Shown here: in pieces, positions 1 through 62,422 of the stretch
Layout: each line of letters begins with the position of its first letter
Numbering within the stretch: the stretch's first letter is position 1
Assembly (NCBI GenBank): GCA_035548315.1
Contig: DASZTF010000010.1
Location: forward strand, 1,721 to 65,720
From: Minisyncoccota bacterium
GTDB taxonomy: Bacteria; Patescibacteriota; Minisyncoccia; Phycocordibacterales; Phycocordibacteraceae
Reading direction: 5' to 3'
DNA: 64,000 nucleotides
Made by a program: the position numbers and the translations under genes
The notes under the pieces: model-generated
What the model saw: only the letters and a program-made list of their open reading frames with translations
Database searches by the model: none
What the model was told of the DNA's origin: nothing

Positions 1-393
1 GTTGCGGAGCTGGCGGCGGACTTCCTTGGATGCCTTCTCGCGGATGAAGTAGAGCTTCGCGCGGCGAACCTTGGAGCGACGGACGATGGTAATCGACTCA
101 ATAGCCGGAGAGTAGAGCGGGAAGATCTTCTCGACGCCGATGCCGCTCATCACCGCGCGTACAGTGAAGGTCGCGCCCGGCTCGGTGCCATGCTTCACCG
201 AGAGGACAAGGCCCTCGAACGCCTGGGTGCGGAAGGTCTGGGTGACCTTCTCCTTCTTGTCGGCGCCCTTCGATTTCTTCGCTTCCATGATCTTCTGCTC
301 CACGCGCACCGTATCGCCCGGGCGGATGCCGAGCTGTGCGCGTTCCTTTACTTTCACTGGGGAAATCACCCGAGAAATATTTTTACCTGACAT
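1..393 (-). CDS. rplS: 50S ribosomal protein L19 (C-terminal end runs off window start)
   Basis: Reverse translation from ATG at 393 gives MSGKNISRVISPVKVKERAQLGIRPGDTVRVEQKIMEAKK..., typical L19; truncated at window edge so absent from ORF track. Confidence 0.8.
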   Translation of the reverse strand, partial: MSGKNISRVISPVKVKERAQLGIRPGDTVRVEQKIMEAKKSKGADKKEKVTQTFRTQAFEGLVLSVKHGTEPGATFTVRAVMSGIGVEKIFPLYSPAIESITIVRRSKVRRAKLYFIREKASKEVRRQLRN

Positions 394-432
394 GTCGCAC
401 TACTGTACCATTCGCACCCTCAAAAAGCAAAG

Positions 433-1167
433 TCAGCCTATCTGCGCGAGTGCCGCGGCAAAATCGGCCGGGAATGGCGCCTCGAACACCTTTTTCTCTC
501 CTGACGGGAGCGTAATAGCGAGGGTGTAGGCATGGAGCGCGGGACGCGCAAAGCCGAGCACGGCCGGCCGGCCGGCCGCATAGAGCGGGTCGCAGACCAC
601 CGGATGATTCATATATTTAAAGTGCACGCGTATCTGGTGGGTGCGGCCCGTCTTGGGCACTGCCTCAAGCAGACTCACCTTCTCTCCCGTCGCCGCATCA
701 GCACCACGAGAAAGCACCTTCCACACAGTAACCGCTGCGCGGTGCTTCTTCTCTTCCCCAGCGCGGCGGATGCCCCAGCGCGGCGGTGTGGAGCGGATGC
801 GCACGATCTCGGCCTTGATCAGGCCCTTATCGCGTGCGGGATGCCCATACACAAACGCACGGTACGTCTTCTCCGTCGTGCGGTCCTGGAATTGCTGCTT
901 TAAGAATTCATACGCTTCCTGCGTCTTTGCGAGAATCACTACGCCCGAGGTCCCGCGGTCGAGCCGATGCACGATGCCCGGCCGCGCGATGACCTCACCC
1001 TGCGGCGATGTCCACGGTTCTCCCGCGGTAGCGGACTCCGGGTAGTGCTCCACCATCCACTCGGCGACCGACGGCTCCTCAGTCCGCCCATCCGAATGCA
1101 TGATCAGCCCTGCGGGTTTATTGATGACGACCAGATCGGTATCCTCATAGAGAATCGGCAACTCCAT
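433..1167 (-). CDS. RluA-family 23S rRNA/tRNA pseudouridine synthase
   Basis: 244 aa; HRLDRGTSGVVILAKT catalytic-Asp motif typical of RluA/RluD family. Confidence 0.85.
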   Translation of the reverse strand: MELPILYEDTDLVVINKPAGLIMHSDGRTEEPSVAEWMVEHYPESATAGEPWTSPQGEVIARPGIVHRLDRGTSGVVILAKTQEAYEFLKQQFQDRTTEKTYRAFVYGHPARDKGLIKAEIVRIRSTPPRWGIRRAGEEKKHRAAVTVWKVLSRGADAATGEKVSLLEAVPKTGRTHQIRVHFKYMNHPVVCDPLYAAGRPAVLGFARPALHAYTLAITLPSGEKKVFEAPFPADFAAALAQIG

Positions 1168-1258
1168 AGATTCACCATACTAGAGCGTTGACATAATTGC
1201 CATTTTTCGGCAGTATCCGGGCAGCCTAGTAATGGGCGGAAAACAACAGGAGTGCGTC

Positions 1259-1693
1259 ATGACGTTGAGATCAACAGCCGTCCTCGCCAGGTCAGACACC
1301 GGCACGAGCGGCGAGCGGTCAACACCAGCGACGAGTCCGCTGGCGGCCGTGAAAGCATCGCTCGCGGAATACATGCTCATCATGGGCCGCGTACAGGCGC
1401 TTACCAAAGCGATCAAGGAAGCGACCGACCGTACACCGACACAGTGCCTCATCCTGGTCGCACTGCTCGAGAAAGACGGCGTGAACCAGACCAACCTGGG
1501 CAAAAGAACGGGCATTCAACGCTCGTGTCTCGCCGAATGCGTCACTCGCATGGTCAGAAAGGAGCTGCTGCTGCGGAGCGACGTCGAAGGCGACAGCCGC
1601 CCGTGGAGTGTCACCCTCACCAACAGGGGTCGGGCCGTGGCGAGGAAACTCGTCATCGAGCTCGGCCACCTTCTGCCGCAAGAAGCAGAATGA
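1259..1693 (+). CDS. MarR-family winged-helix transcriptional regulator
   Basis: MarR-like HTH region (QTNLGKRTGIQRSCLAECVTRMVRKELL...WSVTLTNRGR); start moved to ATG at 1259 preceded by AGGAG. Confidence 0.55.
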   Translation: MTLRSTAVLARSDTGTSGERSTPATSPLAAVKASLAEYMLIMGRVQALTKAIKEATDRTPTQCLILVALLEKDGVNQTNLGKRTGIQRSCLAECVTRMVRKELLLRSDVEGDSRPWSVTLTNRGRAVARKLVIELGHLLPQEAE

Positions 1694-1738
1694 GGTCTCG
1701 GGTCGCCGAGGGAGTTCCCTTCGGCGACCCGGTCCGCA
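1694..1738 (+). terminator. GC-rich hairpin (ggtcgccgaggg ... cccttcggcgacc) after the MarR-like gene
   Basis: near-perfect 12-bp inverted repeat directly after stop codon. Confidence 0.55.
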
Positions 1739-2029
1739 CTATGCACCAAACCGCTCGGCTCTGCCGGCGGTTCGTTTTTTAATAGCGTGTGGGAAAAGAG
1801 AAAAGCCTACTAACCATGACGGTGTTCGGCCTTCCAGGGTGACCCCGCACTAGCATGAGAACCGTCAAGAGTTGGTGCACCCTCAGCGACACCGCTCGAA
1901 CTTTTCGATTTGGTGGCTGGGCATATAGACACAATACAGCTATGGAATGAGGCGGTCAAAGAGTTTTTAGCCCAAGAGTCCTTGGGAAATACGCTGTCGG
2001 TTCGCCTCTGAAATTGGTAAAATACGACC

Positions 2030-2311
2030 ATGGAAAAGAAGGACGCCCTCACGGATTTGGTGGAGTTTGTCCAAGGGACAGTCTCGACAGGGTCCGCCGG
2101 GTCCGGCCAAGTAGTGAATTCCCAAGGCGAAATCATCACCTTGGGCCATCCCGGCAAGGAAAGTGTATCTCCTCGGAGTAAGAGTGTTCCTCTCGAACTG
2201 GATGTTAGGGAATTTCAAGAGAAAGTCTCGACTCGAGTGCAAAAGAAACTCCTTTCGCTAATCGGAACCGCAAAAACCCGCGTTATAGGCGCGAGAATCA
2301 AAGAATCGTAA
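2030..2311 (+). CDS. hypothetical protein (island)
   Basis: 93-aa ORF, low-GC island, ATG start, abuts next ORF. Confidence 0.35.
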   Translation: MEKKDALTDLVEFVQGTVSTGSAGSGQVVNSQGEIITLGHPGKESVSPRSKSVPLELDVREFQEKVSTRVQKKLLSLIGTAKTRVIGARIKES

Positions 2312-2724
2312 TGCACCTCGACCATCTACCGAAAATGCACAAGCCGGAGGAATTCAAGCGGTTTGGCGCGTTCATGGCACTACCGAAGGAGGAACGGATG
2401 CTCGTCTTTGGCTTTACAACCGAAAAGCAGTTCGCGGAGCATTTCAAGGTCAGACCGGCAACCCTATCGGAATGGAAGCAACGAGAGGACTTTTGGAGCG
2501 TCAGGGACGCCTATTTGGCCCCGTTTAGGGCACATACGGCCCAAGTGATAGAAGCCCTTGCGAAACGGGCAGAGCGCACTGGAGACGCTTATCAGGTACT
2601 CACCTTTCTCAAGGTCGTAGAGGGATTTTCAGACAAGGGAAATGCCTTTTCTCTGAAGCAGAGGAAGCCGCCCTTCCGGGTTGAAATCGTGCACAATTTA
2701 GACCAAGCGTGCGCCGCTACTTGA
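2311..2724 (+). CDS. hypothetical protein, possible HTH (island)
   Basis: 137-aa ORF; segment ...VRPATLSEWKQRED... resembles phage small HTH proteins; weak. Confidence 0.35.
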   Translation: MHLDHLPKMHKPEEFKRFGAFMALPKEERMLVFGFTTEKQFAEHFKVRPATLSEWKQREDFWSVRDAYLAPFRAHTAQVIEALAKRAERTGDAYQVLTFLKVVEGFSDKGNAFSLKQRKPPFRVEIVHNLDQACAAT

Positions 2725-4531
2725 AGTCGGCGACATCTCCGTATACCTCGAGGAAAAGAGGTGAGCCGGTGAAAGAGAGTGGGGAAATCGGTCCGAAGAA
2801 CATGAACGGGAATTTCCGATTACTGCTCGGGTCGATGAACGACTTGTAGAGCTGAATCGCTGATGGATTATTCACGAACTCGCTGACCTTTCGGAGCTCG
2901 GAACCAGAGGTTAGGCCGTAGCCGAAGCCGAAAATTCTCATCTGCCGCAAAATCTCATCATCCAAGGACTCGATGGTCTGTGTGATGAACATATAGCCAA
3001 TTCCATATTTTCGAGTCGTGCGTACTGAGCCGATGATTTCTTGGGTGAGCTCCTTGATGCGGGGGTCCTGCGAAGTTGTGGAGATGAATCGATGGGCTTC
3101 GTCCATGACGATAAGGCAGTTTGCCTTCTTTCCATCCGCATAGAGTTGAGCCCCGAGCTCGACGATTTTTGCCTCAATCGTTTTGATAAAGACTGCTTGG
3201 AGGTTTTCGTTTTGAATCTCGCCGACTTGAGTGCCACTGATGTCGAGCACGATAAAATTCCCGTTCTCCAACACAACTTTTTTGACGAGTTCTTCAACAG
3301 TGAGTTTGTTTGTCTGGTCCTCTCGATTCTTGGTAAAAAGCTCGAGCGCGTTTCCCCATTTGCGCGTGATATTGGTTTCAGAGGCCAAGTGGTCCCGAAC
3401 ATGCTCCAACCTGTTCTGGAGACGCGTGCGCGTTTGTGGAGTTCCAAATATCGATATTACATAGGAGGTGAATCCGTCGGCCGTCTCCCGAGGTCCGGTC
3501 GGGGTAATAAACCGATTCAGCAATTCTTGAAGAAGTGCGGTCTTATTGGTAATTGAATTGAGGTTGAACCCGGGGACATTGGCACGCCCGCGAAGATACT
3601 CGACAACCGCGTCTCGCGCGGCCTCGACCTTGTCCGGGGTGTAGAGAGGACGGAAGGCCAGCTCGAGGAAGCCGTTATTTGCGAGCAAGTCGCCCAACAG
3701 CTCAAAGTTATCGCCCGGAAGACAGATGTCTTTCAGTACCTCGTACTTTTCGTACTTCATCCCGGCTTTTGTGATGTGGTCCTCCAATTTCTGGTCCGGT
3801 GGTAGCAAGTCCTTATCGGCGAAAAATTGCCGTTGCGGGTCAAGTACCAAGATGCTCATATTGTTCTTGTTCTTTGCATAGCCGAGAAGCATATAGGCCG
3901 CGGAAACGGTCTTGCCGGACCCGGTCCTGCCGAAGACGCCGATGTGGTACGCATCGCCAGCGCCCGTTTCGTTGTTCTCCTCGTCTGTCTTATCGAAATG
4001 TTTGAACCAAAACGGCAAGTCGACATCTGTGCCATAAACTTTACCCATGTAGGTAATGTCGCCGTCATGTTTCTTCATCAAGGCGGTCATGACCTCGTTA
4101 TTCATTTTTTGCACGCGCTCGCCGGTGGATGGTGAGGTTCCCAAGATGTGCCCCTCGGGATTCTCGGTGCCCAAGTTGTAGCAGGCTTGGACGCTTATCG
4201 TGGCAACGCGGTTGTCGGCCGTGCCGCTCAAGTGTGGAAGGCGACCATGGCGCTTGATGACGCCCTTGAATGAAGGGTCCTCATGCCATCGATTTTGTGT
4301 CTCTATACCGATGATTTGCCCGATGACGAGGATGTTCTGCCCGTCCTCGTTCACGACCACATAGACCATCTGACCCAAAGCCCGCTCGGCTTTGCTTTTC
4401 TCGGAAATGTCGATGACTATGTCGAGCGTCGTGCTCGGCGAGCCGGTGATGCCGATGAGCGTATCATCCTGATTCTTTATGACTTCGAGAAGGCTCTCGG
4501 AGATGGTCGGGTTTTGCGGGTCGTTTGCCAT
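2717..4531 (-). CDS. HerA-like ATPase (FtsK-HerA superfamily, DUF87-type)
   Basis: 604 aa; Walker A GVFGRTGSGKTVS at ~aa 200 and Walker B LIVMDEAHRF (hhhhDEAH) at ~aa 470, the HerA spacing and motif style; low-GC island. Confidence 0.7.
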   Translation of the reverse strand: MANDPQNPTISESLLEVIKNQDDTLIGITGSPSTTLDIVIDISEKSKAERALGQMVYVVVNEDGQNILVIGQIIGIETQNRWHEDPSFKGVIKRHGRLPHLSGTADNRVATISVQACYNLGTENPEGHILGTSPSTGERVQKMNNEVMTALMKKHDGDITYMGKVYGTDVDLPFWFKHFDKTDEENNETGAGDAYHIGVFGRTGSGKTVSAAYMLLGYAKNKNNMSILVLDPQRQFFADKDLLPPDQKLEDHITKAGMKYEKYEVLKDICLPGDNFELLGDLLANNGFLELAFRPLYTPDKVEAARDAVVEYLRGRANVPGFNLNSITNKTALLQELLNRFITPTGPRETADGFTSYVISIFGTPQTRTRLQNRLEHVRDHLASETNITRKWGNALELFTKNREDQTNKLTVEELVKKVVLENGNFIVLDISGTQVGEIQNENLQAVFIKTIEAKIVELGAQLYADGKKANCLIVMDEAHRFISTTSQDPRIKELTQEIIGSVRTTRKYGIGYMFITQTIESLDDEILRQMRIFGFGYGLTSGSELRKVSEFVNNPSAIQLYKSFIDPSSNRKFPFMFFGPISPLSFTGSPLFLEVYGDVADFK

Positions 4532-4533
4532 GG

Positions 4534-5721
4534 TTAGGTTCGATAAGAGAATAATAGACCAAACTTCCCTTGGTCAATTTTTAGGTCGGGCGAGAGGCGG
4601 ATGGCGTCGATGATGGCGAACATGCCAGTCGAGATGCTTTTCGCCATAAGGTCCACGAGGTACTGCGGGTATGGCTCCCGTATCTCCGGGAAGATGATTT
4701 GCTTCTTCAAGCTCCCGAGATAGCGCTCGAGCTTCGCGGAGTCCGTCGCCACCGCCTTTTTCAACTCGACGCGATAAGCTGGCCCGTCCATATATGGCCG
4801 GTAATAAGTGTAGTAAAGCTCCGACTCCTTTCCTCCTTTCGTCGTTATGGGCGCGATGGCATTCTTGAGTGCCGTGTTGAGAGCGTCCTTTTCGGGGATA
4901 TCCAAACTGCAAGCGATGTGAAGTTCGTTCCATATTTTCTCCCGCTCCTGCTTACTCTGCCCGACCGAGTGCGGAACGAGATACTCGTCTTCCGCCAAGC
5001 CGAGCGAGAAAAAGGTCTTATCATCGAGCTTTATTTCGCAGTCAGAAAGGAAGGCGTCGATGATGTCGGTAGAGGAACTGTATTTCGCGAGGGCGATAAT
5101 ATGTTCGTTGTTCTGCGCCGCGGTGATGATGTCCGGGATATCAGGAATGATTTTCGAGTATGTCTCCCGCAAGAAGTCGCGGAGGGCGGCCGCGTATTCA
5201 GGACCCGCACCTTCTTCCTTAGCGGACAACATGCTGTTTATCTTGAGTATCGGAGTGAAATGCGTCCCGTCCATTATGCGAATTTCGTGGTCGTCGTTCG
5301 CCAAGACGCTGAGCTCCATTAGGAACATGACCCCCTGTATGAGCCGCGCGTTCGCTTCGCCATGAGGTAGAACAGTCTGCCATTGATAGTACTGATTCTT
5401 GTCGGCGCCCCACGCCGTATCCTTGTCTTCAGACAGACCTTCAACGCCCACGGCGACGGCAAGGAGGACATCGGCGCCCGCTAGCTTCTCCGGGATATTG
5501 CCGCCATCGACAGCAATCAATGAATGAGAAGGTTCTACATCGGAAAGCTTCTTGATTTTCCCGGCGGCACGCAATTTCTCCATGCCTTTCGCTATCGGTT
5601 CGTCCTGTATATCAAACAGGCCATTCATTTTGTCGACCGTGTTCGGCACGCTCTCAAGAATCTTGCCCAAGAGTTCATCGGGCAAATGGGCGTAATTCCG
5701 GCTTTCTCCCTGCGGTGGCAT
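4534..5721 (-). CDS. NurA-like nuclease (putative partner of HerA)
   Basis: 395 aa; N-terminal SLIAVDGGN motif resembles NurA motif I (catalytic Asp in hhhhDGS); 2-nt gap to the HerA-like gene; tentative. Confidence 0.4.
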   Translation of the reverse strand: MPPQGESRNYAHLPDELLGKILESVPNTVDKMNGLFDIQDEPIAKGMEKLRAAGKIKKLSDVEPSHSLIAVDGGNIPEKLAGADVLLAVAVGVEGLSEDKDTAWGADKNQYYQWQTVLPHGEANARLIQGVMFLMELSVLANDDHEIRIMDGTHFTPILKINSMLSAKEEGAGPEYAAALRDFLRETYSKIIPDIPDIITAAQNNEHIIALAKYSSSTDIIDAFLSDCEIKLDDKTFFSLGLAEDEYLVPHSVGQSKQEREKIWNELHIACSLDIPEKDALNTALKNAIAPITTKGGKESELYYTYYRPYMDGPAYRVELKKAVATDSAKLERYLGSLKKQIIFPEIREPYPQYLVDLMAKSISTGMFAIIDAIRLSPDLKIDQGKFGLLFSYRT

Positions 5722-5724
5722 AGG

Positions 5725-6882
5725 CTAAATGTTTTTTGCTAGTTCCTCACATCGCTCGAGGTCAGAGATGGCATTCTCGACTAAACGGGTCGTGTCGATG
5801 GTCCGGTATGTCGAGTCTTTCTCTGCGCGCGGTTTCGCCCATTTCTCCTTCCAAAACTCTGCTAGCTCGTCGACAGAACGCCGATGCCATTTAGGTCGCG
5901 CATTCTTCTGAATGACATCCTTTACATTGCTCGCAAGCGGAAACAAGTAGACCGCCCGTTCGATGCCGTGGCTTGTTCCGTTAGGGAATCCGAGAAGGTC
6001 GAGAGCTTGAAGTATCAAACGCATCTTGCGCGAAGGCCCATTCCCGAAGCCGCGGCCTACCTCGTATCCTTTTTGCTCCAAGAAAGCGACCAAGTCCTCA
6101 TAAAGCGCATTTGGAATATGGAAAGACCCGGTCCCCCGCGTATAGCCGATGAATCGGGCGACCTCTTGCTCGTTGAACTTCAATCGGGAATACACGGGGC
6201 TCTTGCCGTATGCGCCGGTCGTAGTGAGGAACAGGAGACGGGCCGGGAGCTCCCGATTTTTGAGGAGTGTCTTCTTGCCGCGGTATTTGTCGGCAAACTT
6301 CTTTCTCACAACCTCCGAAGTCATGAGAGAAGCAACGAGCTTCCCGCCCAAAATGTAGTTGTAGGGCGGTAGGGCGCCGAGTCGTTGAGCGCTAAGCGAT
6401 TGATTGACCCAAAAATCCCTTTCCTCTGCGGGAATGCCCAAATGCTCATCGCGGACGCTCCAACTAAGGATGGGGCTTTGCAAGCCGATAAGACCGATGG
6501 GGCTCTTGTGGTACTCGTCCCAAACGACGAACCGCATTTGCCGGCCGTAAGATTGTTCATACGGCAGGCTCCACCAAGTCAGGTTCCACCAACGGAAAAT
6601 TGTCTCCCACTTCGTCCCGGTCTGAACCTCTATAAGGCGCGGCTTGATTTTCTCAACCTCCAATTTCCTGCCGTTTATGAAATGTTCCTTGATAAGCGGA
6701 GCGTTCCTTTCAACAAAATCCCGATGGCGAACGAGTCGTTCGGCCTTTGCGAAACGATGCGCGTCTTTCTTTGCCTCCCGGTCGTCTTGCTTGAGCGTGA
6801 ATGTGCCGAGCCGGGTGCTGTATCCCTGCTTACGCAAGATGCTCAATACATCACGCTTCAGTCTTGTCGCAGTCAGGGCCAT
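5725..6882 (-). CDS. hypothetical protein, first gene of the X-NurA-HerA operon
   Basis: 385-aa ORF ending 4 nt before the NurA-like gene; Trp-rich segment KWETIFRWWNLTWWSLPY; no family recognised with confidence. Confidence 0.5.
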   Translation of the reverse strand: MALTATRLKRDVLSILRKQGYSTRLGTFTLKQDDREAKKDAHRFAKAERLVRHRDFVERNAPLIKEHFINGRKLEVEKIKPRLIEVQTGTKWETIFRWWNLTWWSLPYEQSYGRQMRFVVWDEYHKSPIGLIGLQSPILSWSVRDEHLGIPAEERDFWVNQSLSAQRLGALPPYNYILGGKLVASLMTSEVVRKKFADKYRGKKTLLKNRELPARLLFLTTTGAYGKSPVYSRLKFNEQEVARFIGYTRGTGSFHIPNALYEDLVAFLEQKGYEVGRGFGNGPSRKMRLILQALDLLGFPNGTSHGIERAVYLFPLASNVKDVIQKNARPKWHRRSVDELAEFWKEKWAKPRAEKDSTYRTIDTTRLVENAISDLERCEELAKNI

Positions 6883-6919
6883 GTGTCCAAATTATAGCGC
6901 GGGAGGTGCCCCGTGCCTT

Positions 6920-7141
6920 TTACCTAAGAAAGTAGTCGACACTCTTTCCATACATCTTCGCAAACCGCTTGAGCTCGACGACATCGACCCTCTGCTGACC
7001 TGTTTCGACATTCGAGATGTGCGATTGGGGCCTGTCGAGCTTCTTTGCGGCCTGAGTCTGCGTCAAGCCCGCTTCAAGGCGCGCCGTCTTGAGTCGTCCC
7101 ACAAAGACGGCGTACTCCTTCGTGTGGATTGACTTCTTCAT
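6920..7141 (-). CDS. XRE-family (Cro/CI-type) HTH transcriptional regulator
   Basis: 73 aa; LTQTQAAKKLDRPQSHISNVETGQQRVDVVELKRFAKMYG is a canonical XRE HTH. Confidence 0.8.
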   Translation of the reverse strand: MKKSIHTKEYAVFVGRLKTARLEAGLTQTQAAKKLDRPQSHISNVETGQQRVDVVELKRFAKMYGKSVDYFLR

Positions 7142-7167
7142 AGGATAAATGCTCTATCCAAGAAGTC

Positions 7168-7190
7168 AATATCCAAAATCTGGATATTGT
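7168..7190. promoter_or_regulatory. perfect palindrome caATATCCAaaatcTGGATATtg in divergent promoter region (candidate operator)
   Basis: 9-bp arms, 5-bp spacer, between divergently transcribed XRE gene and the zinc-ribbon/recombinase genes. Confidence 0.5.
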
Positions 7191-7204
7191 GATACGCTAA
7201 CTAT

Positions 7205-7489
7205 ATGGCTACGAAACAAATCCAATGCCCGAACTGCAAGGGCTTCAATACCACGAGTATTTCGCCTCGCGCCGTCGCACGGATGATTTCGGTCGGACTT
7301 ATCATTCTCGGCTCGGTTTTTTCAGTTTTCATCATCGGCCTCCTTATCGGGATACCGATGTTTCTCCTCGGGCTTGTCCTCCTCCTCGTTTCTTTCTTCC
7401 TGCCCGAAAATGGCCGGATGCGGTGCCGCCAATGCCACTTCGTCTTTATGGCCAATTCTCAGGGTGAGGCGGGTCAGAAGGTCCCCTAG
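7205..7489 (+). CDS. small membrane protein with zinc ribbon (CPNC...CRQC) and two TM helices
   Basis: 94 aa; CxxC pairs flank two hydrophobic helices. Confidence 0.45.
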   Translation: MATKQIQCPNCKGFNTTSISPRAVARMISVGLIILGSVFSVFIIGLLIGIPMFLLGLVLLLVSFFLPENGRMRCRQCHFVFMANSQGEAGQKVP

Positions 7490-7538
7490 AGTCCGTAGCA
7501 AAGCGTAATAAAATGGGGATACCGGGCCCGGTATTTCA

Positions 7539-9173
7539 ATGGCAGACCTCACCACCACAAAGGAGCTTTTCGATACCCTAAAGCGCTTCTACGACCCCAC
7601 GGACGCAGACAAGGCAAACAAGCCATTGCGGTATGTCATCTATGCTCGAAAGAGCACGGATGACAGCGATAAGCAGACTCGCTCCCTTGGCGACCAGATG
7701 AGCGAGTGCTTGGAGTTTGCCGACCGGCACAACCTCTTGCTTGGTCGTCCCGCGCAGATTCAGGAAGCTATTAGTGCGAAGGTGAGCGACAAACGACCCG
7801 GGTTCCGAAGAATGATTGAGGATATCAAGAAGGGTCAGTACGACGGGATTATTGCATGGCACCCCGACCGGCTCGCTCGCAATATGAAGGATGCCGGAGA
7901 AATCATCGACCTCCTCGATAAGGGAACGATTAGGGACCTGCAGTTCGTTAGCTTCAATTTCGATAACACGCCCTCCGGGAAAATGAGTCTCGGGATTCAA
8001 TTCGTGATGTCCAAGCAATATAGCGACCAACTTTCCGTGAATGTATCGCGCGGCATCAGTCATTCGATTGAAGATGCGGAGTATATCAATCGCCCCAAGC
8101 ATGGGTACTTCAAGGATGACCGCCAATATCTCCGCCCGGACGGCCGGAATCATGGCCTCATAAAGAGCGCTTTTCAGCTCCGCCGACAAGGACGCACATT
8201 CAAGCAAATTGCTGATTGGTTGAACTCTCAACACTACGAACGCGCTTATGTAGACGGCTCGCATAAGTCCTTCAATTGGCGTCCGCAAATGGTCCAAAGG
8301 ATATTGCGGGACCCGGCATACGCGGGTGTCGTCGCGTATGGCGAGGGCCATCTTGTTGACCTGACAGAGGCTTACGACTTCGTTCCGGCCGTATCGGTGG
8401 CAGAGTTTTTCGAGTTGAATAATCTCCGTGGCGGAAACAAAGAACTCGCCAAGCTTGCACGCTCGTACCGCAAGGGAGACTCCATAAAAGCCGACCTCAT
8501 GCGCGGCATGGTGTATTGCTCTGAATGCGGCGAGCCCCGTTCTGCCGGCATTACCCGCAAGAAAGAAAAGGGTGGGACCACAAATTATTTTTATTATCGA
8601 TGCGAGACTCCCGGTTGCAAGCTCCGAAATCGGTCTACTCGAGCAAAGGTAGTGGTAGATTTCGTGAAAGCATTTCTTAGCAAGAAGCCTTTTTCTTCCA
8701 AGAAGGCATACGAACATTACGCGGCTGAGATGAAGCGTATAGAAGCGATGCGTGCGGAGGACAGGCGTGCATTACTAAGGACCCTTCAAGGAAAGGAAAA
8801 ATCACTTGCCTCTAAGCGAGAGCGCATCAAAGAATTCATTATCGACGAACAGAACCATGAATTCAGGGACGGCTTCAAGGGCGACCTTCTCAAGGCAGAG
8901 AAGGAGCATGAGGAAGTGCAAGCCGAAATCAAAAAGCTAAAGACGGCAATCGAGGCCGAAAAGAGCGCTATCCTCCTGATGCCGGAATTTCTCGAACAAA
9001 TGGATAAAATCGCCCAGATTATAGCTTCCCCGAAGAACATGCAGGAGCTCGACTTCTGCATCAAAAAGATGTTCTCGAACTTTTCGGTAGACCAAAAAAG
9101 CGTAGTATCTGCAACGCTCTCCGAGCCGTTCGCCCGACTCAAGGACCCGAAAGTTGCTTTAGGTGCGCGGTGA
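7539..9173 (+). CDS. large serine recombinase (integrase)
   Basis: 544 aa; resolvase N-terminal motif YVIYARKSTDDSDKQTRSLGDQ (Ser nucleophile), recombinase domain, zinc ribbon CSECGEP...YYRCETPGC, C-terminal coiled coil. Confidence 0.85.
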   Translation: MADLTTTKELFDTLKRFYDPTDADKANKPLRYVIYARKSTDDSDKQTRSLGDQMSECLEFADRHNLLLGRPAQIQEAISAKVSDKRPGFRRMIEDIKKGQYDGIIAWHPDRLARNMKDAGEIIDLLDKGTIRDLQFVSFNFDNTPSGKMSLGIQFVMSKQYSDQLSVNVSRGISHSIEDAEYINRPKHGYFKDDRQYLRPDGRNHGLIKSAFQLRRQGRTFKQIADWLNSQHYERAYVDGSHKSFNWRPQMVQRILRDPAYAGVVAYGEGHLVDLTEAYDFVPAVSVAEFFELNNLRGGNKELAKLARSYRKGDSIKADLMRGMVYCSECGEPRSAGITRKKEKGGTTNYFYYRCETPGCKLRNRSTRAKVVVDFVKAFLSKKPFSSKKAYEHYAAEMKRIEAMRAEDRRALLRTLQGKEKSLASKRERIKEFIIDEQNHEFRDGFKGDLLKAEKEHEEVQAEIKKLKTAIEAEKSAILLMPEFLEQMDKIAQIIASPKNMQELDFCIKKMFSNFSVDQKSVVSATLSEPFARLKDPKVALGAR

Positions 9174-9236
9174 GGGACTTGAACCCCCGACCATCCCGGT
9201 GTAAACGGGGTGCTCTACCAACTGAGCTAACCGCGC
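9164..9236 (-). tRNA. tRNA-Val (anticodon TAC)
   Basis: 73-nt cloverleaf folded by hand: acceptor GCGCGGT/ACCGCGC, anticodon loop TTTACAC, T-loop TTCAAGT; 3' end overlaps recombinase stop. Confidence 0.85.
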
Positions 9237-9269
9237 AGTAATGAAGTTGTAGCACATTTCACCTCGTTG

Positions 9270-9351
9270 TGGGCATGGGGAGACTCGAACTCCCAAGGAT
9301 TGCTCCATACGCTTCTGAGACGTACGCGTATACCAATTCCGCCACATGCCC
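9270..9351 (-). tRNA. tRNA-Leu (anticodon CAG), class II with long variable arm
   Basis: acceptor GGGCATG/CATGCCC, D-arm GCGGAATTGGTATACGC, anticodon loop CTCAGAA, variable arm, T-loop TTCGAGT. Confidence 0.8.
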
Positions 9352-9384
9352 GTGCGTACACTCTATCGTTGTCTATTAAAAGAA

Positions 9385-9421
9385 GGAAGCTGGCAGCGCT
9401 ATGTTTTGCGCTACCAGCTTC
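9385..9421 (-). terminator. hairpin GAAGCTGGCAGCGC-loop-GCGCTACCAGCTTC followed on the minus strand by CTTCTTTT
   Basis: 14-bp stem with one mismatch after the cupin gene stop. Confidence 0.5.
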
Positions 9422-9434
9422 GCATCGCACTGAC

Positions 9435-9902
9435 TTAAAGGTAATGCGTGTCGTCCGGTGCGATGGGAGGTAAAGAGCCCACCGCCACGAGCAAGGGATC
9501 TCCCTTGGTTCCTGGAATCCGGCGGAACCCGTGAGGGACGCCGGGATCGAGAATGATCGTTTGGCCGAGGTGAAGGGGCAACCACAGGTTGGTATTTGAG
9601 AGGCTGAACAACCCCTCAAAGTTCTTGTTGCCGCCGATTACCTGAACCACCGACCCGCTGCGGGTGTGGTAGTGAGGTCTCACATTCTCGACCTGAAGGC
9701 ATTCGAACTCGACACCGTCGAGCAGAGTTGTCTGATGGACAAGAGGCGCTGCAGCGCGGACTTGCCGGTCGAAATTGCAGTAGAGAACACCTTCTTCTTC
9801 GTTCCAATCCTCAGTACCCTCGAAGATACCGATCGGGCTCGCGTCACGAACCTGTTGAAGCGCGAGTGCGATAACACTCGATTTACTCATCGCACGTTCC
9901 AT
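9435..9902 (-). CDS. cupin-domain protein
   Basis: 155 aa; HYHTRSG ... PHGF histidine pattern of cupin fold. Confidence 0.5.
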   Translation of the reverse strand: MERAMSKSSVIALALQQVRDASPIGIFEGTEDWNEEEGVLYCNFDRQVRAAAPLVHQTTLLDGVEFECLQVENVRPHYHTRSGSVVQVIGGNKNFEGLFSLSNTNLWLPLHLGQTIILDPGVPHGFRRIPGTKGDPLLVAVGSLPPIAPDDTHYL

Positions 9903-9949
9903 AAAGGACTCCTATCTTGGTACGGGAATACTATACTATAAATGCTACA

Positions 9950-11632
9950 TTAATCAAGAAGCAGTCGTGCGAGGCGTATGTCGGCGTACGAGGCCTTGCC
10001 GTGCAGGGCGGCGAATATGGTCTTGAGTGCCTTCGACTTCTTTTTCCGGAACATCGCCTGGATGTCATCCAAGTGAGGCGCATCGTCTGCGAGGTACAGC
10101 ACCTCGCTACGCTCCACGCGCCCGGCCTCGCGCAGCTGCTCCAAGTGGTCGATGATCGTCTCCGGCTTCACGCCGCGCTCGTCTGCCATTTCCCCAAGCG
10201 GCATCTGCTCGCGCACGAGCGCGAGGGTCGCGTCGATGGTCGGCACCTTCGGCGCGCTTTTCTCCGCGCGGCGCTTAGCTGCAAGCGCGAGGTTCTCGGT
10301 GCCGCCGATAGCGAGTACGAATCGCTTCTCCAGCTTCTTGCGCTCGTCTTCTCCCATGTCGTCGAATGCTGCCTCTGCGCCCGCGGACGCGGCGCGGAAC
10401 TCTCGGTCCTTCTTCGCGATTTCCGGATGCACCAAAAGCGCGCGGTCATTCATCCCGTAGAGCGAGAGGCCATCGAGCGTGCGCACGCGCGAGAGCGCGA
10501 CGTAGCCCTGGCCGTATTCAAATGCTGCGGAGAGGTCGACCGTCGCCGCGTCGAGCGACATGCCCTGGCTCTTATGCACGGTGATGGCCCACGCAAGCCG
10601 CAGCGGGACTTGGCTGATGGTCGCGAGCGTCCTGCCGCCGTCTTCCATCTTCCACTCCACTGGTTCTGCCACGATCTCCTCACCCGTGACGAGCTCGACG
10701 ATCGGATACTTGTGCACCGCAGAGAATCCGAGAACGCTGCCGAGCGTGCCATTGGCGTAGCGATTCATCGGATCGTTCTTGGTGAACATCACGCGCGCGC
10801 CTTCTTTGAGCACCAATGTCTCTGGCGAGAGGCAGCCGCGCTTGAGATTCTCGACCAAGTGCGCGGCGCCCTTGCTCGTCATGATGAATCGCTCGCTGCG
10901 ACCGTCGATCGCCGCAAGCGCGGCATCGTTCATGCGGTCGACCGATGCGTTGTGCGTATAGAGGCGCGTCACTGGCGCATGCACATCACCGTCCATCACC
11001 GCTTCCCCATCCACCTGACGACTCTCGAGCAGCGCACGGTGCTGCGCCGTCACCGCCTCCGCACGAATAGCGGAGAGGAGCGCGAGGAGCGCGCTGTCTT
11101 CTTGGCGGTGCTGCTCGCTCAAGTAGCAGACCAGGGGATTCGCTGCTTTCCACGCATCCGCGTCGAATGCGAATGCTGCGCGGTGACTCTCGCGCGATAT
11201 CGGTGGCAGCTGAAAAAAGTCTCCGACGAACACCACCTGGAGTCCGCCGAATGGCCGCTCCGGGTTGCGGATCGCACGGCACACCTCCTCTACCATATCG
11301 AGCGTGTTCGCCGAGAGCATCGAAATCTCATCGATGATTAAAATGTGCGCAGACCGGACACGTTTGTTCACACGCTCGTTGTTCTGGATGCGGTCGAGGT
11401 CGTATGGCGTGAGCTGTTCGAGCACGCCAATCCCACTCCACGCGTGAATCGTCATGCCGCCGATGTGGGTCGCGGCGATGCCTGTGGAAGCCGTGATAGC
11501 AGGTTCGACTCCACGCTCGTGGAGCCATTTTACGTAGGCGTTTACCGTGTGCGTCTTGCCGCTCCCCGGCTCACCCGTGAGAAAGACATTCGCGCCGGTG
11601 GTGAGAATGGCGAGCGCTTCCCGTTGCGTCAT
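9950..11632 (-). CDS. RecD/PIF1-family ATP-dependent DNA helicase with C-terminal HTH
   Basis: 560 aa; Walker A FLTGEPGSGKTH, Walker B LIIDEISM, RecD-like C-terminal region. Confidence 0.75.
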   Translation of the reverse strand: MTQREALAILTTGANVFLTGEPGSGKTHTVNAYVKWLHERGVEPAITASTGIAATHIGGMTIHAWSGIGVLEQLTPYDLDRIQNNERVNKRVRSAHILIIDEISMLSANTLDMVEEVCRAIRNPERPFGGLQVVFVGDFFQLPPISRESHRAAFAFDADAWKAANPLVCYLSEQHRQEDSALLALLSAIRAEAVTAQHRALLESRQVDGEAVMDGDVHAPVTRLYTHNASVDRMNDAALAAIDGRSERFIMTSKGAAHLVENLKRGCLSPETLVLKEGARVMFTKNDPMNRYANGTLGSVLGFSAVHKYPIVELVTGEEIVAEPVEWKMEDGGRTLATISQVPLRLAWAITVHKSQGMSLDAATVDLSAAFEYGQGYVALSRVRTLDGLSLYGMNDRALLVHPEIAKKDREFRAASAGAEAAFDDMGEDERKKLEKRFVLAIGGTENLALAAKRRAEKSAPKVPTIDATLALVREQMPLGEMADERGVKPETIIDHLEQLREAGRVERSEVLYLADDAPHLDDIQAMFRKKKSKALKTIFAALHGKASYADIRLARLLLD

Positions 11633-11663
11633 CTCACTAGTGTACCAACTACTCTAAAATAGG

Positions 11664-11735
11664 TGCCCCCGCCTGGAATCGAACCAAGATCAAGAGCTTA
11701 GAAGTCTCCTGCACTATCCATTGTGCTACAGGGGC
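11664..11735 (-). tRNA. tRNA-Arg (anticodon TCT)
   Basis: acceptor GCCCCTG/CGGGGGC, D-arm GCAC-AATGGATA-GTGC, anticodon loop CTTCTAA, T-loop TTCGATT; one A-G mismatch at base of anticodon stem. Confidence 0.7.
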
Positions 11736-11752
11736 AGTGTTACCTTACCGCA

Positions 11753-12058
11753 CTACTTGGATGGGTCAACGAACTGATAGACCTTCTCATAATTCTGCAT
11801 CTCCGCAGCGCGCGTCTTGAATACCGCTTCCGCCGCGGTGACCGCGCTCGTGTCCGATGCGGGTGCGCTCGTCGACGTCATGCTCGACACCGCACTATTC
11901 TTCACGCTGGTGTAGATGAGCACGTTCGCCGCGACACTCGCACCAAGCAACACGACTGCGGCCACGAGCAGCACGAGCCAGTCGCGCACGGGATGCAGCC
12001 GTTCGCCGTAGCTGAACGTGGAGAGCGCGCGCTTCTCTATATCAGAAAGTGAGTTCAT
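11753..12058 (-). CDS. single-TM hypothetical protein downstream of pilMNO (PilP-position)
   Basis: 101 aa from internal ATG; one TM helix then Ala/Ser-rich region. Confidence 0.3.
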   Translation of the reverse strand: MNSLSDIEKRALSTFSYGERLHPVRDWLVLLVAAVVLLGASVAANVLIYTSVKNSAVSSMTSTSAPASDTSAVTAAEAVFKTRAAEMQNYEKVYQFVDPSK

Positions 12059-12588
12059 GGTGTTGTGGTGGCAGAGGAGGACGCCGTTCCCACCGAGAGC
12101 GTCATGGCGGCGGTCCACCCGGGTGTAGCGGTGGTATTGGTCGTACTCAAATTAAGCGAATGCACCGTGATGTCGTAGGGGCTGTACTCGATCGCGCCTA
12201 CGGTGCGCATGACTGCAGCGAACGACCCGCTGATCGCAAGGGCGAGGTCGAGGTGCGGTCGCGGATTCGGATTCGCCGTGACTGACACCACCGAGATCGC
12301 TGCACCGAGGCTCCGCCCAAGCGACTGCTGATCCTCAAGGAAGGTCACGATAGTGTCGGGGAGCACGGAATAATTCTGGATATCGCGCGCTGCAGGCGCG
12401 AGCTGCGCGAGTTCATCTGCGGCGTGGGCGGAACTCACTTCGTCCTGAGTGCGGCTGTTCACCTCTCCCACGAGTTGCGCTACTGCGGTCGTAGCCGCGG
12501 TCAGCATGGAATACCAGTAGGCATAGGCCCCAAGTGCGATTGCGAAGATCACGATCCACAGCACGAGCTGGTAGAGTGGGCGGTTCAT
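12055..12588 (-). CDS. PilO-like type IV pilus assembly protein
   Basis: 177 aa; N-terminal TM followed by periplasmic domain, downstream of pilN. Confidence 0.4.
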   Translation of the reverse strand: MNRPLYQLVLWIVIFAIALGAYAYWYSMLTAATTAVAQLVGEVNSRTQDEVSSAHAADELAQLAPAARDIQNYSVLPDTIVTFLEDQQSLGRSLGAAISVVSVTANPNPRPHLDLALAISGSFAAVMRTVGAIEYSPYDITVHSLNLSTTNTTATPGWTAAMTLSVGTASSSATTTP

Positions 12589-13154
12589 GGCATTGGTGCG
12601 AGCGTCCCAGTGATCGTCATCGAGAACGCGATGTCGGTATCCTCAGCGTACGCGCTAATCGGAAGGTCGACACTCGTGACAAACGGTGCTCCCGTGAGCG
12701 CGAGGTTGTAGCTGCGCAGTTCTTCGCGCGTAGCAGCGGTGCCCGAAAGCACCATTTTCGCGCTCTGTGCATTCCCGCCCGTTGGCGGCGTATAGGTGAT
12801 GCTCGCGAGCGAGACGCCTGGGTGCGGTACCCCAAGCACGACGCGCACGGCACCTGATGCAGATGGCGTGTTCTTGAGTTCAGCCAAGTGCGCCGCACTC
12901 GCCTTGAGCGTAGCGAGCTCGCTCGCGGCACTCTCTGCGGTTGCATCCGCATTCGCACTCGTGTTCACGAGCGCCGCTTGCTCTGCGCGGACCTCGGCGG
13001 TCGCATACAAGTACGACGGGAGAAGCAGGATGCCGTGGATCACCACCAGTGCGGTGAGCAGCATGAACGCTACCGTCGCGAGGCGGATGAAGTAATTCCG
13101 ACGGAATGCACGGCTGCGATCCGGCGGGAGCAAATTGATCATGTCATGGGACAT
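12585..13154 (-). CDS. pilN: type IV pilus assembly protein PilN
   Basis: start moved to MSHDMINLLPP; INLLP is the PilN signature, followed by a TM helix. Confidence 0.65.
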   Translation of the reverse strand: MSHDMINLLPPDRSRAFRRNYFIRLATVAFMLLTALVVIHGILLLPSYLYATAEVRAEQAALVNTSANADATAESAASELATLKASAAHLAELKNTPSASGAVRVVLGVPHPGVSLASITYTPPTGGNAQSAKMVLSGTAATREELRSYNLALTGAPFVTSVDLPISAYAEDTDIAFSMTITGTLAPMP

Positions 13155-14223
13155 ATTGTCGTAGCGCGAGCCCGATCGCGGTCGCGTATGCGAGCGACTC
13201 GGTGTAATCAATCGGCGGGAGCCAGTAGTCGCGTGAGGCGAAATTGGTAAACACGTCCCCGAGCTCGACCGGGATCTTGAGTCCCGCCGCAAGGTATTCC
13301 GGCAGACCCTTCACCGTCGCGTTCCCTCCCACGATGAGCGCGCGGGTGACGGGGTCGTGGCCACCACCCGCCACACCGCGCGTCTGCCAGTAATCAAGGC
13401 GCCGCGCAATCTCTTCCCGGATTGCTGACACCGTCGAGAGCATCGCCGCCAGATACTCGTCATTCCCATCACTCGCGACAAGCCCCCGGTCAGCCTTCAC
13501 GCGCTTCGCTTCTTCTTCGGTGACGCCAAAGTGTTTCTGCACCGCCATCGTAAGCGCGTGACCACCGATGTCGAGCGTGGTCGCGTAACGCGGGATGCGA
13601 TTCGCCACCACGATCAGTTTGGTGGTCGTGCGGCCGATGTCGATCACGAGCACGGTGGAAGGATCGCCGGGACGCAGGACAGCACGTGCGATTGAGAAAA
13701 GCTCGCTCTCGATCGCACGGATGCCGATACCAGCTTCATCAAACGCCTGGAGCGATTGCTCGATCACGCGACGCGCGTACCCCACGGCCACGAGGTGCGT
13801 CTGCTCCCCCACTTTTCCTGCTGCCATAAAGTCGTACGCGACTTCGGAGGGCGGGAGTGGTACGTATTCGTCGAGGTGCTGCTCGAGCGCCACCGACCAC
13901 GCTTCGGGTGTCTCGCCGGGAACGTCTGTCTCAAAGAGGTATGTACGCGATTCGGGCAGAGCAATATTGGCGAGTGCTGCGCCCTCACCGCGCGCGAGGG
14001 TAGAAATCCCCTTGGCCACCGCGCCGATGTCATTAATATCCGCTGAGGTGAAGGCGCCCTCCGGAAGTCGCGCTTCTTTGGCGGCCGCGAGCTCTATGCC
14101 GCGCGCCGTTTCCTTGAGCATCGCGAACTTGATGCTGCTTGCAGAGACGTCGATGCCCGCAGTGGGGAGCGTGAGGTAGCGCGGCGGCGCGAAGTTAACC
14201 GAAATGAAGCGCGGAAGCGACAT
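13144..14223 (-). CDS. pilM: type IV pilus assembly protein PilM (actin-like ATPase)
   Basis: 359 aa; GIDVSASSIKFAMLK N-terminus and actin/FtsA-like fold segments. Confidence 0.75.
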   Translation of the reverse strand: MSLPRFISVNFAPPRYLTLPTAGIDVSASSIKFAMLKETARGIELAAAKEARLPEGAFTSADINDIGAVAKGISTLARGEGAALANIALPESRTYLFETDVPGETPEAWSVALEQHLDEYVPLPPSEVAYDFMAAGKVGEQTHLVAVGYARRVIEQSLQAFDEAGIGIRAIESELFSIARAVLRPGDPSTVLVIDIGRTTTKLIVVANRIPRYATTLDIGGHALTMAVQKHFGVTEEEAKRVKADRGLVASDGNDEYLAAMLSTVSAIREEIARRLDYWQTRGVAGGGHDPVTRALIVGGNATVKGLPEYLAAGLKIPVELGDVFTNFASRDYWLPPIDYTESLAYATAIGLALRQYVP

Positions 14224-58866: not shown

Positions 58867-59220
58867 TCATACAGACTCCGGCAGTGCATTTTCGAGTTCG
58901 GGTGTGGTGGGATCAAGGATGGCGCGACAATAGTCGAGGATTTTTTTCGGACACGTGTGCGGTCCGTAGCGGAATGCTGCGAAGGTTTCGTAGCTGTTTC
59001 CAAATCCTGCAGCGACAAACACTGCGACATCATCCATGTCCCGCTCTTCTTTCATGCGATTGAAGATCCCGAGAACCATTGTTCCGGTGAATTGCTCTTC
59101 CTGCGTAAGTGGTGGCTTGGGCCACGGAAACTGCGAACGGAAGATTTCCACTCGTTGGTATCGGAGCATGGCTTTTGAGCTGAGAAGAGCAGCTCGGTGC
59201 GTGTCAGCAACTGCTTCCAT
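58867..59220 (-). CDS. hypothetical protein
   Basis: ORF from MEAVADTHRAALL; start chosen to avoid overlap with the neighbouring small ORF. Confidence 0.3.
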   Translation of the reverse strand: MEAVADTHRAALLSSKAMLRYQRVEIFRSQFPWPKPPLTQEEQFTGTMVLGIFNRMKEERDMDDVAVFVAAGFGNSYETFAAFRYGPHTCPKKILDYCRAILDPTTPELENALPESV

Positions 59221-59270
59221 AGCGCACCTCCTTTCTGCAGTAGTAAACCACCGATATCTGCGGTGGGTTA

Positions 59271-59453
59271 CTAGCGCCGGCGTTTCCGCCCGCTCCCCGA
59301 CTTCTTCCCACCACCGCTTTCTTTGTTCACGGTCGCCCACGCGCGGCGCTCGGCTTCTTTCTTGCTGGTGCCGCGCTTTTCATATCCTTCTTCAATATGT
59401 TCTGCCTCACGCTTCTGCTTGTCGGTATATTTTGATTTGCTTCCTCGTGCCAT
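59271..59453 (-). CDS. small Lys/Glu-rich hypothetical protein
   Basis: 60 aa, MARGSKSKYTDKQKREAEHIEEGYEKRGTSKKEAERRAWATVNKESGGGKK; composition typical of small stress-type proteins. Confidence 0.35.
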   Translation of the reverse strand: MARGSKSKYTDKQKREAEHIEEGYEKRGTSKKEAERRAWATVNKESGGGKKSGSGRKRRR

Positions 59454-59539
59454 ACGTGAAAGTTAGTAGGTAATGAAACTCACGTAAGTATCGTTTCTAC
59501 GGGGTGAAAAATAAGTGAGCGTTCTGGTATCATGCGCGC

Positions 59540-60334
59540 ATGCGTATCGCTTCCTGGAATGTGAACGGCATCCGCGCCGTGCACCGCAAGGGTCTCTTTG
59601 TGCCGTTCGTACATAAAGTAAAGCCAGACATTATCTGTCTCCAGGAGACCAAGGCAAAAGAAGATCAGTCAGAAGTCGACCTCCCCGACTACCACGAGTA
59701 CTGGAATTCTGCAGAGAAAGCTGGCTACAGCGGCACCGCGATTTTCTCTAAAGAAGAGGCGCTCGATGTGCGTCTCGGGCTCCCCGATGACCTCGCGGAG
59801 AAGTACGGCCTCCATACCGATTCGTATGGCGACCCCAACTCCGAGGGCCGCGTGATCACTGCGGAATATGAAGATTTCTTCGTCGTGAGTGCGTACACGC
59901 CAAACGCCAAGCCCGACCTATCTCGCCTCTCGCTCCGCCACACGCAGTGGGATCCAGCGTTCCTTGAATATATGAAGCGCTTGGAAGAAGATAAGCCGGT
60001 GGTGTTCTGTGGCGATCTCAACGTCGCGCATATGGAAGACGACCTCGCGAACCCTAAATCCAATAAAGGCGAACACGGGTTCACCGATGAAGAGCGCGAG
60101 GGCATCGACCTCATACTCGGTGCCGGATTCGTGGACACCTTCCGCCTCTTTCACCAGGGCAAGGGTTTCTATACCTGGTGGAGCCACTTCGGCCATGCGC
60201 GCGAGCGCAACGTGGGCTGGCGCATCGACTACATATTCGTGAGCAAGGCGCTCAAGAATAAAGTAAAGAAAGCAGCAATCTACCCCGACCTCCTCGGCTC
60301 CGACCACTGCCCTGTCTCTGCGGATATTGCCTAA
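59540..60334 (+). CDS. xth: exodeoxyribonuclease III (AP endonuclease)
   Basis: 264 aa; MRIASWNVNGIRA start and conserved SDHCPV C-terminus. Confidence 0.9.
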   Translation: MRIASWNVNGIRAVHRKGLFVPFVHKVKPDIICLQETKAKEDQSEVDLPDYHEYWNSAEKAGYSGTAIFSKEEALDVRLGLPDDLAEKYGLHTDSYGDPNSEGRVITAEYEDFFVVSAYTPNAKPDLSRLSLRHTQWDPAFLEYMKRLEEDKPVVFCGDLNVAHMEDDLANPKSNKGEHGFTDEEREGIDLILGAGFVDTFRLFHQGKGFYTWWSHFGHARERNVGWRIDYIFVSKALKNKVKKAAIYPDLLGSDHCPVSADIA

Positions 60335-61146: not shown

Positions 61147-61154
61147 AAGGATTT

Positions 61155-61559: not shown

Positions 61560-61596
61560 ATGGCCTCCCAGGCGTTGGTTTGAAAGATCAATTTCT

Positions 61597-61675: not shown

Positions 61676-61700
61676 TCGGCGGGATATCAGCCCGCTCCAC

Positions 61701-62410: not shown

Positions 62411-62422
62411 TATTTTGCATAG

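Follow-up and report, generated by a model that had tools for sequence, protein, structure and literature searches.

Type I Druantia, a defense system of five genes that includes at its canonical loci a DEAD/DEAH helicase of ~1850 aa, is large and has been hard to dissect. The helicase, DruE, defines the system, and we know of no function that has been assigned to DruA since Doron et al. described Druantia in 2018; in type II the first slot is reportedly occupied by a methylase, DruM. The full type I system is carried by Ralstonia solanacearum UW163 (PMC7251935), where pUW163a holds the complete DruABCDE operon. Two other described systems are built around ring-shaped motors of the HerA type. 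In HerA–NurA, a ring translocase associated with a nuclease dimer loads on DNA ends and degrades the DNA (PMC3326311, PMC9960219), and TdpABC, as it is outlined in PMC12914056 (citing An et al., Nat Chem Biol 2025), combines a HerA-like TdpA and a NurA-like TdpB with a single modification enzyme, TdpC. Here, we analyze a three-gene locus, druA-nurA-herA, within a 64,000-nucleotide stretch of DNA (hereafter the window) from a Minisyncoccota bacterium (assembly GCA_035548315.1, contig DASZTF010000010.1, positions 1,721 to 65,720), in which a DruA is encoded directly ahead of a NurA-family nuclease and a HerA-clade ATPase.

We found no description of such a combination as far as we searched: no paper joining DUF4338, DruA or Druantia with NurA was encountered in the literature, most subscription journals lying outside the search, and PADLOC has no model for the three genes together. 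On balance, we consider it probable that they constitute a self-contained, mobile cassette that defends its host against phages or other invading DNA, with NurA–HerA degrading that DNA from free ends and DruA discriminating between targets.

Identity of the three proteins

The product of the first gene, a protein of 385 aa that a sequence-only reading of the window had left without a name, was identified by hidden Markov model search as DruA/DUF4338 (PF14236; Pfam E 2e-62, profile positions 6-295 of 297), which is the single Pfam family on this protein. The PADLOC DruA model also matches it (E 3e-90), an identical protein has already been named DruA by NCBI in a metagenome-assembled genome (MAG) of Candidatus Paceibacterota, and an alignment that covers 94% of it shows 35% identity to the type I DruA of R. 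solanacearum pUW163a. The Trp-rich segment to which the same reading had drawn attention, WWNLTWWSLPY, is present at residues 98-108. The core of DruA, at approximately residues 80-250, has the alpha/beta fold of the GNAT family; every DruA subtype has this core and several Gly- and Arg-rich loops in invariant form, and the variable regions are the first ~95 residues and the last ~55 (~1-95 and ~330-385). The top structural match is Mom of phage Mu, a GNAT-fold DNA adenine methylcarbamoylase. A link between DruA and Mom at the level of sequence was rejected (hhalign probability 0.5%), and searches of DruA against the chains of the PDB, with both the single sequence and a profile, returned noise only. 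Just past the strand at 162-170, an invariant PPYN-x3-GGK (172-181) lies at the expected site of the acyl-CoA pyrophosphate-binding loop (Q/R-x-x-G-x-G/A). The family is a small one, with 1448 clusters at 50% identity among 1.84 billion representatives.

For the 395-aa product of the second gene, the proposal of a NurA-like nuclease has held: a structure model of moderate quality displays the RNase H-like fold and the Asp-Glu-Asp triad of the HerA–NurA end-resection nucleases. The conserved acidic residues of the triad are D72, contained in the motif SLIAVDGG, E136 and D151, and D357, K213 and Y214 are conserved as well. The likeness is one of fold, as single-sequence and profile searches against the PDB chains gave noise only and no detectable sequence similarity to the solved NurAs; nor did any model of PADLOC-DB v2.0.0 match.

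The 604-aa product of the third gene matches Pfam DUF87 (E 8e-11). Its best PADLOC matches are mad8 (3e-15) and the defense HerA models, and among PDB entries its family profile retrieves TdpA (8wet, 5e-10), a HerA (6e-10) and the Sulfolobus HerA (3e-9). The signature of the HerA/FtsK clade is a RecA-like core with Walker A and B motifs, an Arg finger, a Gln sensor and a helical insertion (PMC10853773). This pattern fits the protein, which has GRTGSGKT as Walker A (~201-208), DEAH as Walker B (477-480, inside LIVMDEAH), an Arg-finger/sensor block RTTRKYGIGYMFITQ (504-518) and ~270 residues inserted between the two Walker motifs; K207, D477, E478, R504, R507 and Q518 are invariant. No Pfam match to a HAS-barrel appears at E<=0.1, and the alignment to the HerA-like chain 9c1m extends back to residue 94. 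Assignment to the VirB4/TraC conjugation ATPases was rejected: the NCBIfam scores of 18-29 bits, confined to the Walker B region, are more than 20-fold under the cut-offs of 567-643, and the protein is HerA-like, as had been thought.

Across the homologs, the catalytic residues of NurA and HerA and the putative ones of DruA are invariant, and the gene identities, the folds and the intactness of these motifs are established for the trio. All the motifs pointed out in the sequence-only reading were recovered, as WWNLTWWSLPY, SLIAVDGG, GRTGSGKT and LIVMDEAH. The same is true of its set of closely packed minus-strand genes, whose coordinates and lengths agree with the list of open reading frames (ORFs); the spacers are 3 nt between druA and nurA (5722-5724) and 2 nt between nurA and herA (4532-4533), within an operon of 4.2 kb.

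Conservation, transfer and shuffling of the cassette

A scan of GTDB, with one genome for each of 185,579 species, revealed 54 related loci from more than 10 phyla, all of them from uncultured organisms. As mapped by tblastn and ORF analysis, nurA directly follows druA on the same strand in 46 of the 54, and herA comes next in 42 of these, the other 4 being contig ends or a degraded copy (L059); of the remaining eight, two break off at druA and six show other contexts. The trio that had been noticed in a single genome thus does recur elsewhere, and its arrangement is not a matter of chance, since the same genes in the same order and with the same tight packing (intergenic gaps range from overlaps to ~54 nt and are mostly <15 nt) are found in dozens of unrelated genomes. 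When the comparison was made in reverse, from the NurA homologs, DruA and HerA were again adjacent, and the order DruA-NurA-DUF87 was also met beside three DruA homologs, on a 499-kb JGI metagenome contig and in a Pyrinomonadaceae and a Brocadiales MAG. Identity to the window proteins is 50-70% in amino acids across phyla. Because all the homologous loci were recovered from MAGs or from single-cell assemblies, some of the phylum assignments may be binning artifacts; the occurrence of loci on complete MAG chromosomes (e.g., L024, L030, L040 and L056) speaks for a genuine breadth. The distribution is rare and patchy. Some copies look degraded: in Candidatus Zeuxoniibacter abyssi (L056:10471-14140) the matches to druA and to herA are both split in two, and in a Bdellovibrionales genome (L059:10001-10926) there are fragments of druA and nurA only.

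There is no consistent fourth gene among the 139 flanking ORFs that were scanned. The neighbors of the trio are unrelated housekeeping genes and some toxin-antitoxin genes, DNA methylases (beside a minority of the copies only), NUDIX hydrolases and recombinases; the counts of B12/radical-SAM and DUF3047 genes appear to derive mostly from syntenic Nitrospirales loci. As to a linkage with mre11-rad50, the same 139 ORFs gave two weak SMC_N matches, with no metallophosphatase among the 25 most frequent families.

The cassette spreads by horizontal transfer, as is revealed by the 50-70% amino acid identity over more than 10 phyla together with a nucleotide identity of ~90% that is confined to the cassette. 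In a Falkowbacteria and a Wolfebacteria MAG (L022 and L046, 9991-14175), 90% nucleotide identity begins precisely at the druA ATG and ends precisely at the herA stop, and the flanks are unrelated; in a second pair (L007 and L008), ~90% identity starts 124 nt upstream of the cassette and ends 21 nt downstream of it, again between unrelated flanks. Alignment of the borders in both pairs disclosed no terminal inverted repeats and no target duplications. A transposon-like, self-mobile cassette is not supported, as the homology ends at the ORF borders and repeats are lacking.

Pairwise identities across 39 complete trios (38 loci and the window) are correlated with a Spearman rho of 0.92 for NurA versus HerA, and of 0.49 and 0.48 for DruA versus NurA and HerA, respectively. 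For instance, L005 and L046 share 94% identity in NurA and 91% in HerA versus 56% in DruA, and the window and L018 share 86% and 91-92% versus 54-56%; conversely, at L001, L011 and L047 it is DruA that is similar (43-60% identical), and the NurA/HerA pair is distant (23-34%). NurA and HerA have co-evolved closely, and DruA shuffles independently of them. The L018 locus (L018:9087-14239), from a Kaiserbacteria MAG, has the NurA and HerA closest to those of the window among the loci compared; its druA is convergent with nurA-herA and has upstream of it an HTH-SocA/Panacea antitoxin-like gene in divergent orientation.

Other gene sets, too, begin with DruA, namely DruBCDE and, at four of the related loci, a protein kinase-ORC/CDC6-like ATPase with an HFX_2341-like protein. 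In its pairing with several effector sets, DruA behaves as a portable front-end for ATP-dependent DNA effectors. In this second type of cassette (L048:9977-14826, L050:10001-13663, L051:10001-14152 and L052:10004-14918), a DruA that is 42-45% identical to that of the window is followed by a protein of ~780-850 aa, in which Pfam recognizes, for L048, L050 and L052, the fusion of a protein kinase with an ORC/CDC6-like ATPase. A further ORF comes after the large protein in L048 (374 aa, with a sub-threshold HFX_2341-like match), L051 (147 aa) and L052 (401 aa), and none is listed in L050; in L052 the partner genes and druA point toward each other. Some DruA-like genes have no partners: they are found in Thermaerobacter (L049), Pelagibacter phage Mosig and cyanophages and, as judged by fold, in giant viruses. 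In the T4-like phage Mosig (L064:4551-5849), a 432-aa DUF4338 protein is encoded among 2OG-Fe(II) oxygenase, peptide deformylase and MazG genes, and BFVD includes DruA-like folds from Klosneuvirinae giant viruses. At one more locus (L057:7505-10738), a truncated DruA-like ORF of 250 aa is divergent from a TOTE-system AEP primase-helicase (Pfam AEP-TOTE E 3e-98).

Regulatory region and putative carrier island

Upstream of druA in the window is an XRE-family helix-turn-helix (HTH) regulator gene, the stop of which is 37 nt from the druA start (Table 1). Its presence was anticipated correctly, and we have rejected it as a conserved controller of the trio: genes of this kind stand upstream only in the window, L046 and L067, so that it is an accessory of some lineages. 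The window XRE has no ortholog at the other loci, being 30% identical to the HTH protein of L046 and without detectable similarity to that of L067. Its best PADLOC matches are capH (E 7e-10) and the restriction-modification Control_protein (E 1e-4). The promoter-like site ahead of the XRE gene overlaps a palindrome, AATATCCA-N5-TGGATATT (7188-7181 and 7175-7168), and a third half-site, TGGATA, lies at 7160-7155; the arrangement is suggestive of a putative autoregulated operator. Since such sites are no more numerous in the region than in shuffled sequence, the promoter-like site too is to be taken as suggestive only. The repressor and this operator-like palindrome may serve to time or limit expression in the lineage of the window. 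A perfect TATAAT (6891-6896) precedes the druA ATG (6882) by 8 nt; no obvious Shine-Dalgarno sequence is seen there, and the hexamer could be an internal promoter for a near-leaderless druA mRNA that is independent of the XRE promoter.

The cassette would be carried by an integrated island, which had also been suggested beforehand. GC content drops from ~0.60 to 0.49-0.55 across ~1800-9300 and is back to >=0.61 past ~9900, and the low-GC stretch has tRNA-Val at one end and, at the other, a terminator-like hairpin that follows a MarR-like gene. This composition and a recombinase gene at a tRNA make a recombinase-bearing island plausible. A repeat search of positions 1-10000 found no att-like direct repeats, no flanking inverted repeats and no copy of a tRNA fragment, so the ends are not proven and rest on GC content and the tRNA. 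The large serine recombinase, whose gene is divergent from the XRE-druA operon, is probably the integrase of the island, and tRNA-Val is its likely right edge. Five other loci (L007, L010, L011, L020 and L053) have related recombinases no more than a few kb from the trio; the recombinase is a lineage-limited accessory and no part of the conserved trio.

Several smaller features of the window are listed with these in Table 1. The ORF between XRE and the recombinase is hydrophobic in its middle part, with CxxC motifs at either end, and the two small ORFs at the left end of the island might be genes for its excision or regulation; the longer of these is convergent with herA and overlaps its 3' end by 8 nt. 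Just outside the island, a helicase gene is flanked by tRNA-Val and tRNA-Leu (9162-9351) on one side and by tRNA-Arg (11662-11735) on the other. A second low-GC stretch is found at the right end of the window.

Table 1. Positions in the window of the cassette, its regulatory region, the putative island and other features
Feature	Position	Strand	Description and evidence
herA	2717-4531	-	604-aa HerA/FtsK-clade ATPase
nurA	4534-5721	-	395-aa NurA-family RNase H-like nuclease
druA	5725-6882	-	385-aa DruA/DUF4338 protein
XRE-family HTH regulator gene	6920-7141	-	73 aa; Pfam HTH_31/HTH_3 E 3e-12
Promoter-like site	7142-7188	-	TTGACT-16 nt-TATCCT, upstream of XRE gene; sequence reading and promoter scan
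Putative integrated island, low GC	1800-9173		~7.4 kb; composition profiles, ends approximate
Large serine recombinase	7539-9173	+	544 aa; Pfam Resolvase, Recombinase, Zn_ribbon_recom; PHROG integrase E 1e-68
tRNA-Val(TAC)	9162-9236	-	ARAGORN; 12-nt overlap with recombinase 3' end
Small ORF	2030-2311	+	93 aa
Small ORF	2311-2724	+	137 aa; weak IS-transposase HTH and CI-repressor HTH matches
Small ORF	7205-7489	+	94 aa; weak zinc-ribbon and DUF5362 matches, no PHROG match
Pif1/RecD-like helicase	9950-11632	-	C-terminal HTH_40
Second low-GC stretch	59000-64000		GC 0.51-0.53
EEP-family endo/exonuclease	59540-60334
SAM-methyltransferase-like	60331-61146
TrmB-like regulator	62423-63193

Proposed function and relation to described systems

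The earlier suggestion that a HerA, a NurA-like protein and a third component form a defense-type module is favored by the comparisons, in which the trio proved conserved and mobile and its HerA appears nearest to defense-associated HerAs. We infer complex formation, degradation from DNA ends, a defense role and the nature of the DruA substrate as follows. HerA is predicted to form a hexameric, ATP-driven translocase of double-stranded DNA with a docked NurA dimer, which would draw in DNA from a free end and break it down, as do archaeal and bacterial HerA–NurA and TdpAB; homology and the co-evolution of the two proteins point to such a ring translocase with its docked nuclease and to end loading. 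DruA, as a GNAT-fold enzyme, would be the discrimination module that chooses the DNA to attack. It is a tentative but distinct possibility that it does so by marking self, so that NurA–HerA spares it by the logic of restriction-modification. DruA would then put an acyl group on host DNA or on a DNA-bound factor, and self DNA would stall or escape NurA–HerA; this can be likened to the shielding of self DNA from TdpAB by TdpC phosphorothioation, and phosphorothioate on self DNA is said to halt the TdpAB motor. The model of self-marking is drawn from the position of druA at the head of the operon, the restriction-modification-like controller that is sometimes upstream, the exchange of DruA independently of the motor, the phage copies without partners and the methylase DruM reported for the first slot of Druantia type II. 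More doubtful is its strictest form, in which DruA would be a nucleic-acid acyltransferase leaving an undescribed covalent mark on host DNA and NurA–HerA would destroy unmarked, free-ended DNA. It is consistent with the example of TdpABC, with the top fold match to Mom, with a gene order that puts the modifier first and has a restriction-modification-like controller, with the shuffling of DruA and with the partner-less phage and giant-virus genes. If it were true, this would be a new chemical class of restriction-modification, and the role of DruA in Druantia type I would be explained as well.

A defense cassette of somewhat different logic, which we regard as an uncertain yet serious candidate, has DruA as a sensor or activator, or as a suicidal co-effector, rather than a self marker: on infection, DruA would acetylate a protein (NurA/HerA, or one of the phage or host) or tRNA, and thereby either switch NurA–HerA on or arrest growth in an abortive infection. 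A protein- or RNA-directed sensor or co-effector role has been suggested for a fused GNAT (PMC10853773). Set against this are the first place of druA in a tightly coupled operon with, in some lineages, a restriction-modification-style controller upstream, the partner-less DruA-like genes of phages, which are easier to understand as self-protective modifiers, and TdpABC, in which DNA chemistry reportedly gates a NurA/HerA-like motor; none of these is decisive.

The two roles outside defense fit the distribution and the contexts of the trio poorly. It is improbable that the genes provide housekeeping resection of double-strand breaks, as a HerA–NurA of organisms without RecBCD/AddAB with DruA as a regulatory acetyltransferase, even though NCBI annotates NurA as a 'DNA double-strand break repair nuclease', its fold and catalytic triad are those of the repair enzymes, sequence conservation is high, and many copies lie among housekeeping genes, one next to ruvABC. 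A repair function is difficult to reconcile with a cassette that is very rare and patchy (54 loci from 185,579 species genomes), moves precisely between phyla, lies on a recombinase island here and near recombinases at five other loci, and has no consistent mre11-rad50 linkage in adjacent genes; moreover, DruA is otherwise known only from a defense system, and sequence profiles put HerA nearest to TdpA and the defense-associated HerAs. Still less credible, indeed very improbable, is the processing or transfer of the mobile element, with HerA as a conjugation or packaging pump and NurA as a processing nuclease in the service of the island. HerA/FtsK ATPases do pump DNA for conjugative elements and phages (PMC10853773), the window cassette is on a recombinase island, and HerA has weak matches to PHROG terminase and Zot and to VirB4/TraC. 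However, these last remain far beneath the cut-offs, most copies are without a nearby recombinase, relaxase, coupling protein or capsid gene, homology stops at the ORF borders with no terminal repeats, and NurA–HerA pairs are not known from transfer systems.

The trio makes the role of DruA directly testable, since the 4.2-kb operon places it beside NurA–HerA, one of the best-understood pairs of nuclease and motor, for which structures and assays exist. As a defense cassette, it would also extend the HerA-based immune modules by one that has NurA as its effector. Among CPR/Patescibacteria and other uncultured lineages, groups with poorly known defense repertoires, the cassette appears to be a common accessory. 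DruA itself stands out as portable, being paired with no fewer than three different ATP-dependent effector sets.

How, then, does the trio compare with the described systems? With Druantia type I, it shares a full-length DruA/DUF4338 protein encoded first in the operon, an ATP-dependent DNA motor after it and an association with mobile DNA, but it has a NurA nuclease and a HerA ring translocase in place of DruB, DruC, DruD and DruE. There is no ORF or Pfam match for DruE (a DUF1998/YprA-family helicase) within positions 1-14000, and only NurA and HerA follow druA, neither matching the PADLOC models of DruB, DruC or DruD; lacking DruB-E, the trio is not Druantia type I. The HerA-clade ATPase that is coupled to an effector in a compact operon recalls Sir2-HerA, DUF4297-HerA, mad8 of MADS and DndH, a 'HerA/FtsK capture', but its effector is NurA, where those systems have Sir2, DUF4297/Cap4 or a restriction endonuclease. 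No conserved Sir2, DUF4297 or methylase component is present at the trio or in its flanks, and by this difference of effector it is neither Sir2-HerA nor DUF4297-HerA.

In other described systems, a HerA is paired with NurA. The adjacent nurA and herA of archaea and of Deinococcus/Thermus share with the trio the RNase H-like NurA with its D-E-D triad, the Walker, Arg-finger and Gln-sensor motifs of HerA and the same predicted action of DNA-end loading, translocation and cleavage, whereas the trio is headed by druA, is rare and mobile and is without mre11-rad50 linkage in the flanking ORFs scanned, and is thus not the canonical repair HerA–NurA. TdpABC, the nearest analogue among known three-gene systems, likewise has a HerA-like and NurA-like pair together with a third gene; the sequence similarity of TdpA and TdpB to the HerA and NurA of the trio is remote, and their third gene, TdpC, makes DNA phosphorothioate, whereas that of the trio is the GNAT-fold DruA, so the trio is not TdpABC either. 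By analogy with these systems, the cassette would work most like TdpAB or HerA–NurA, equipped with a Druantia front-end.

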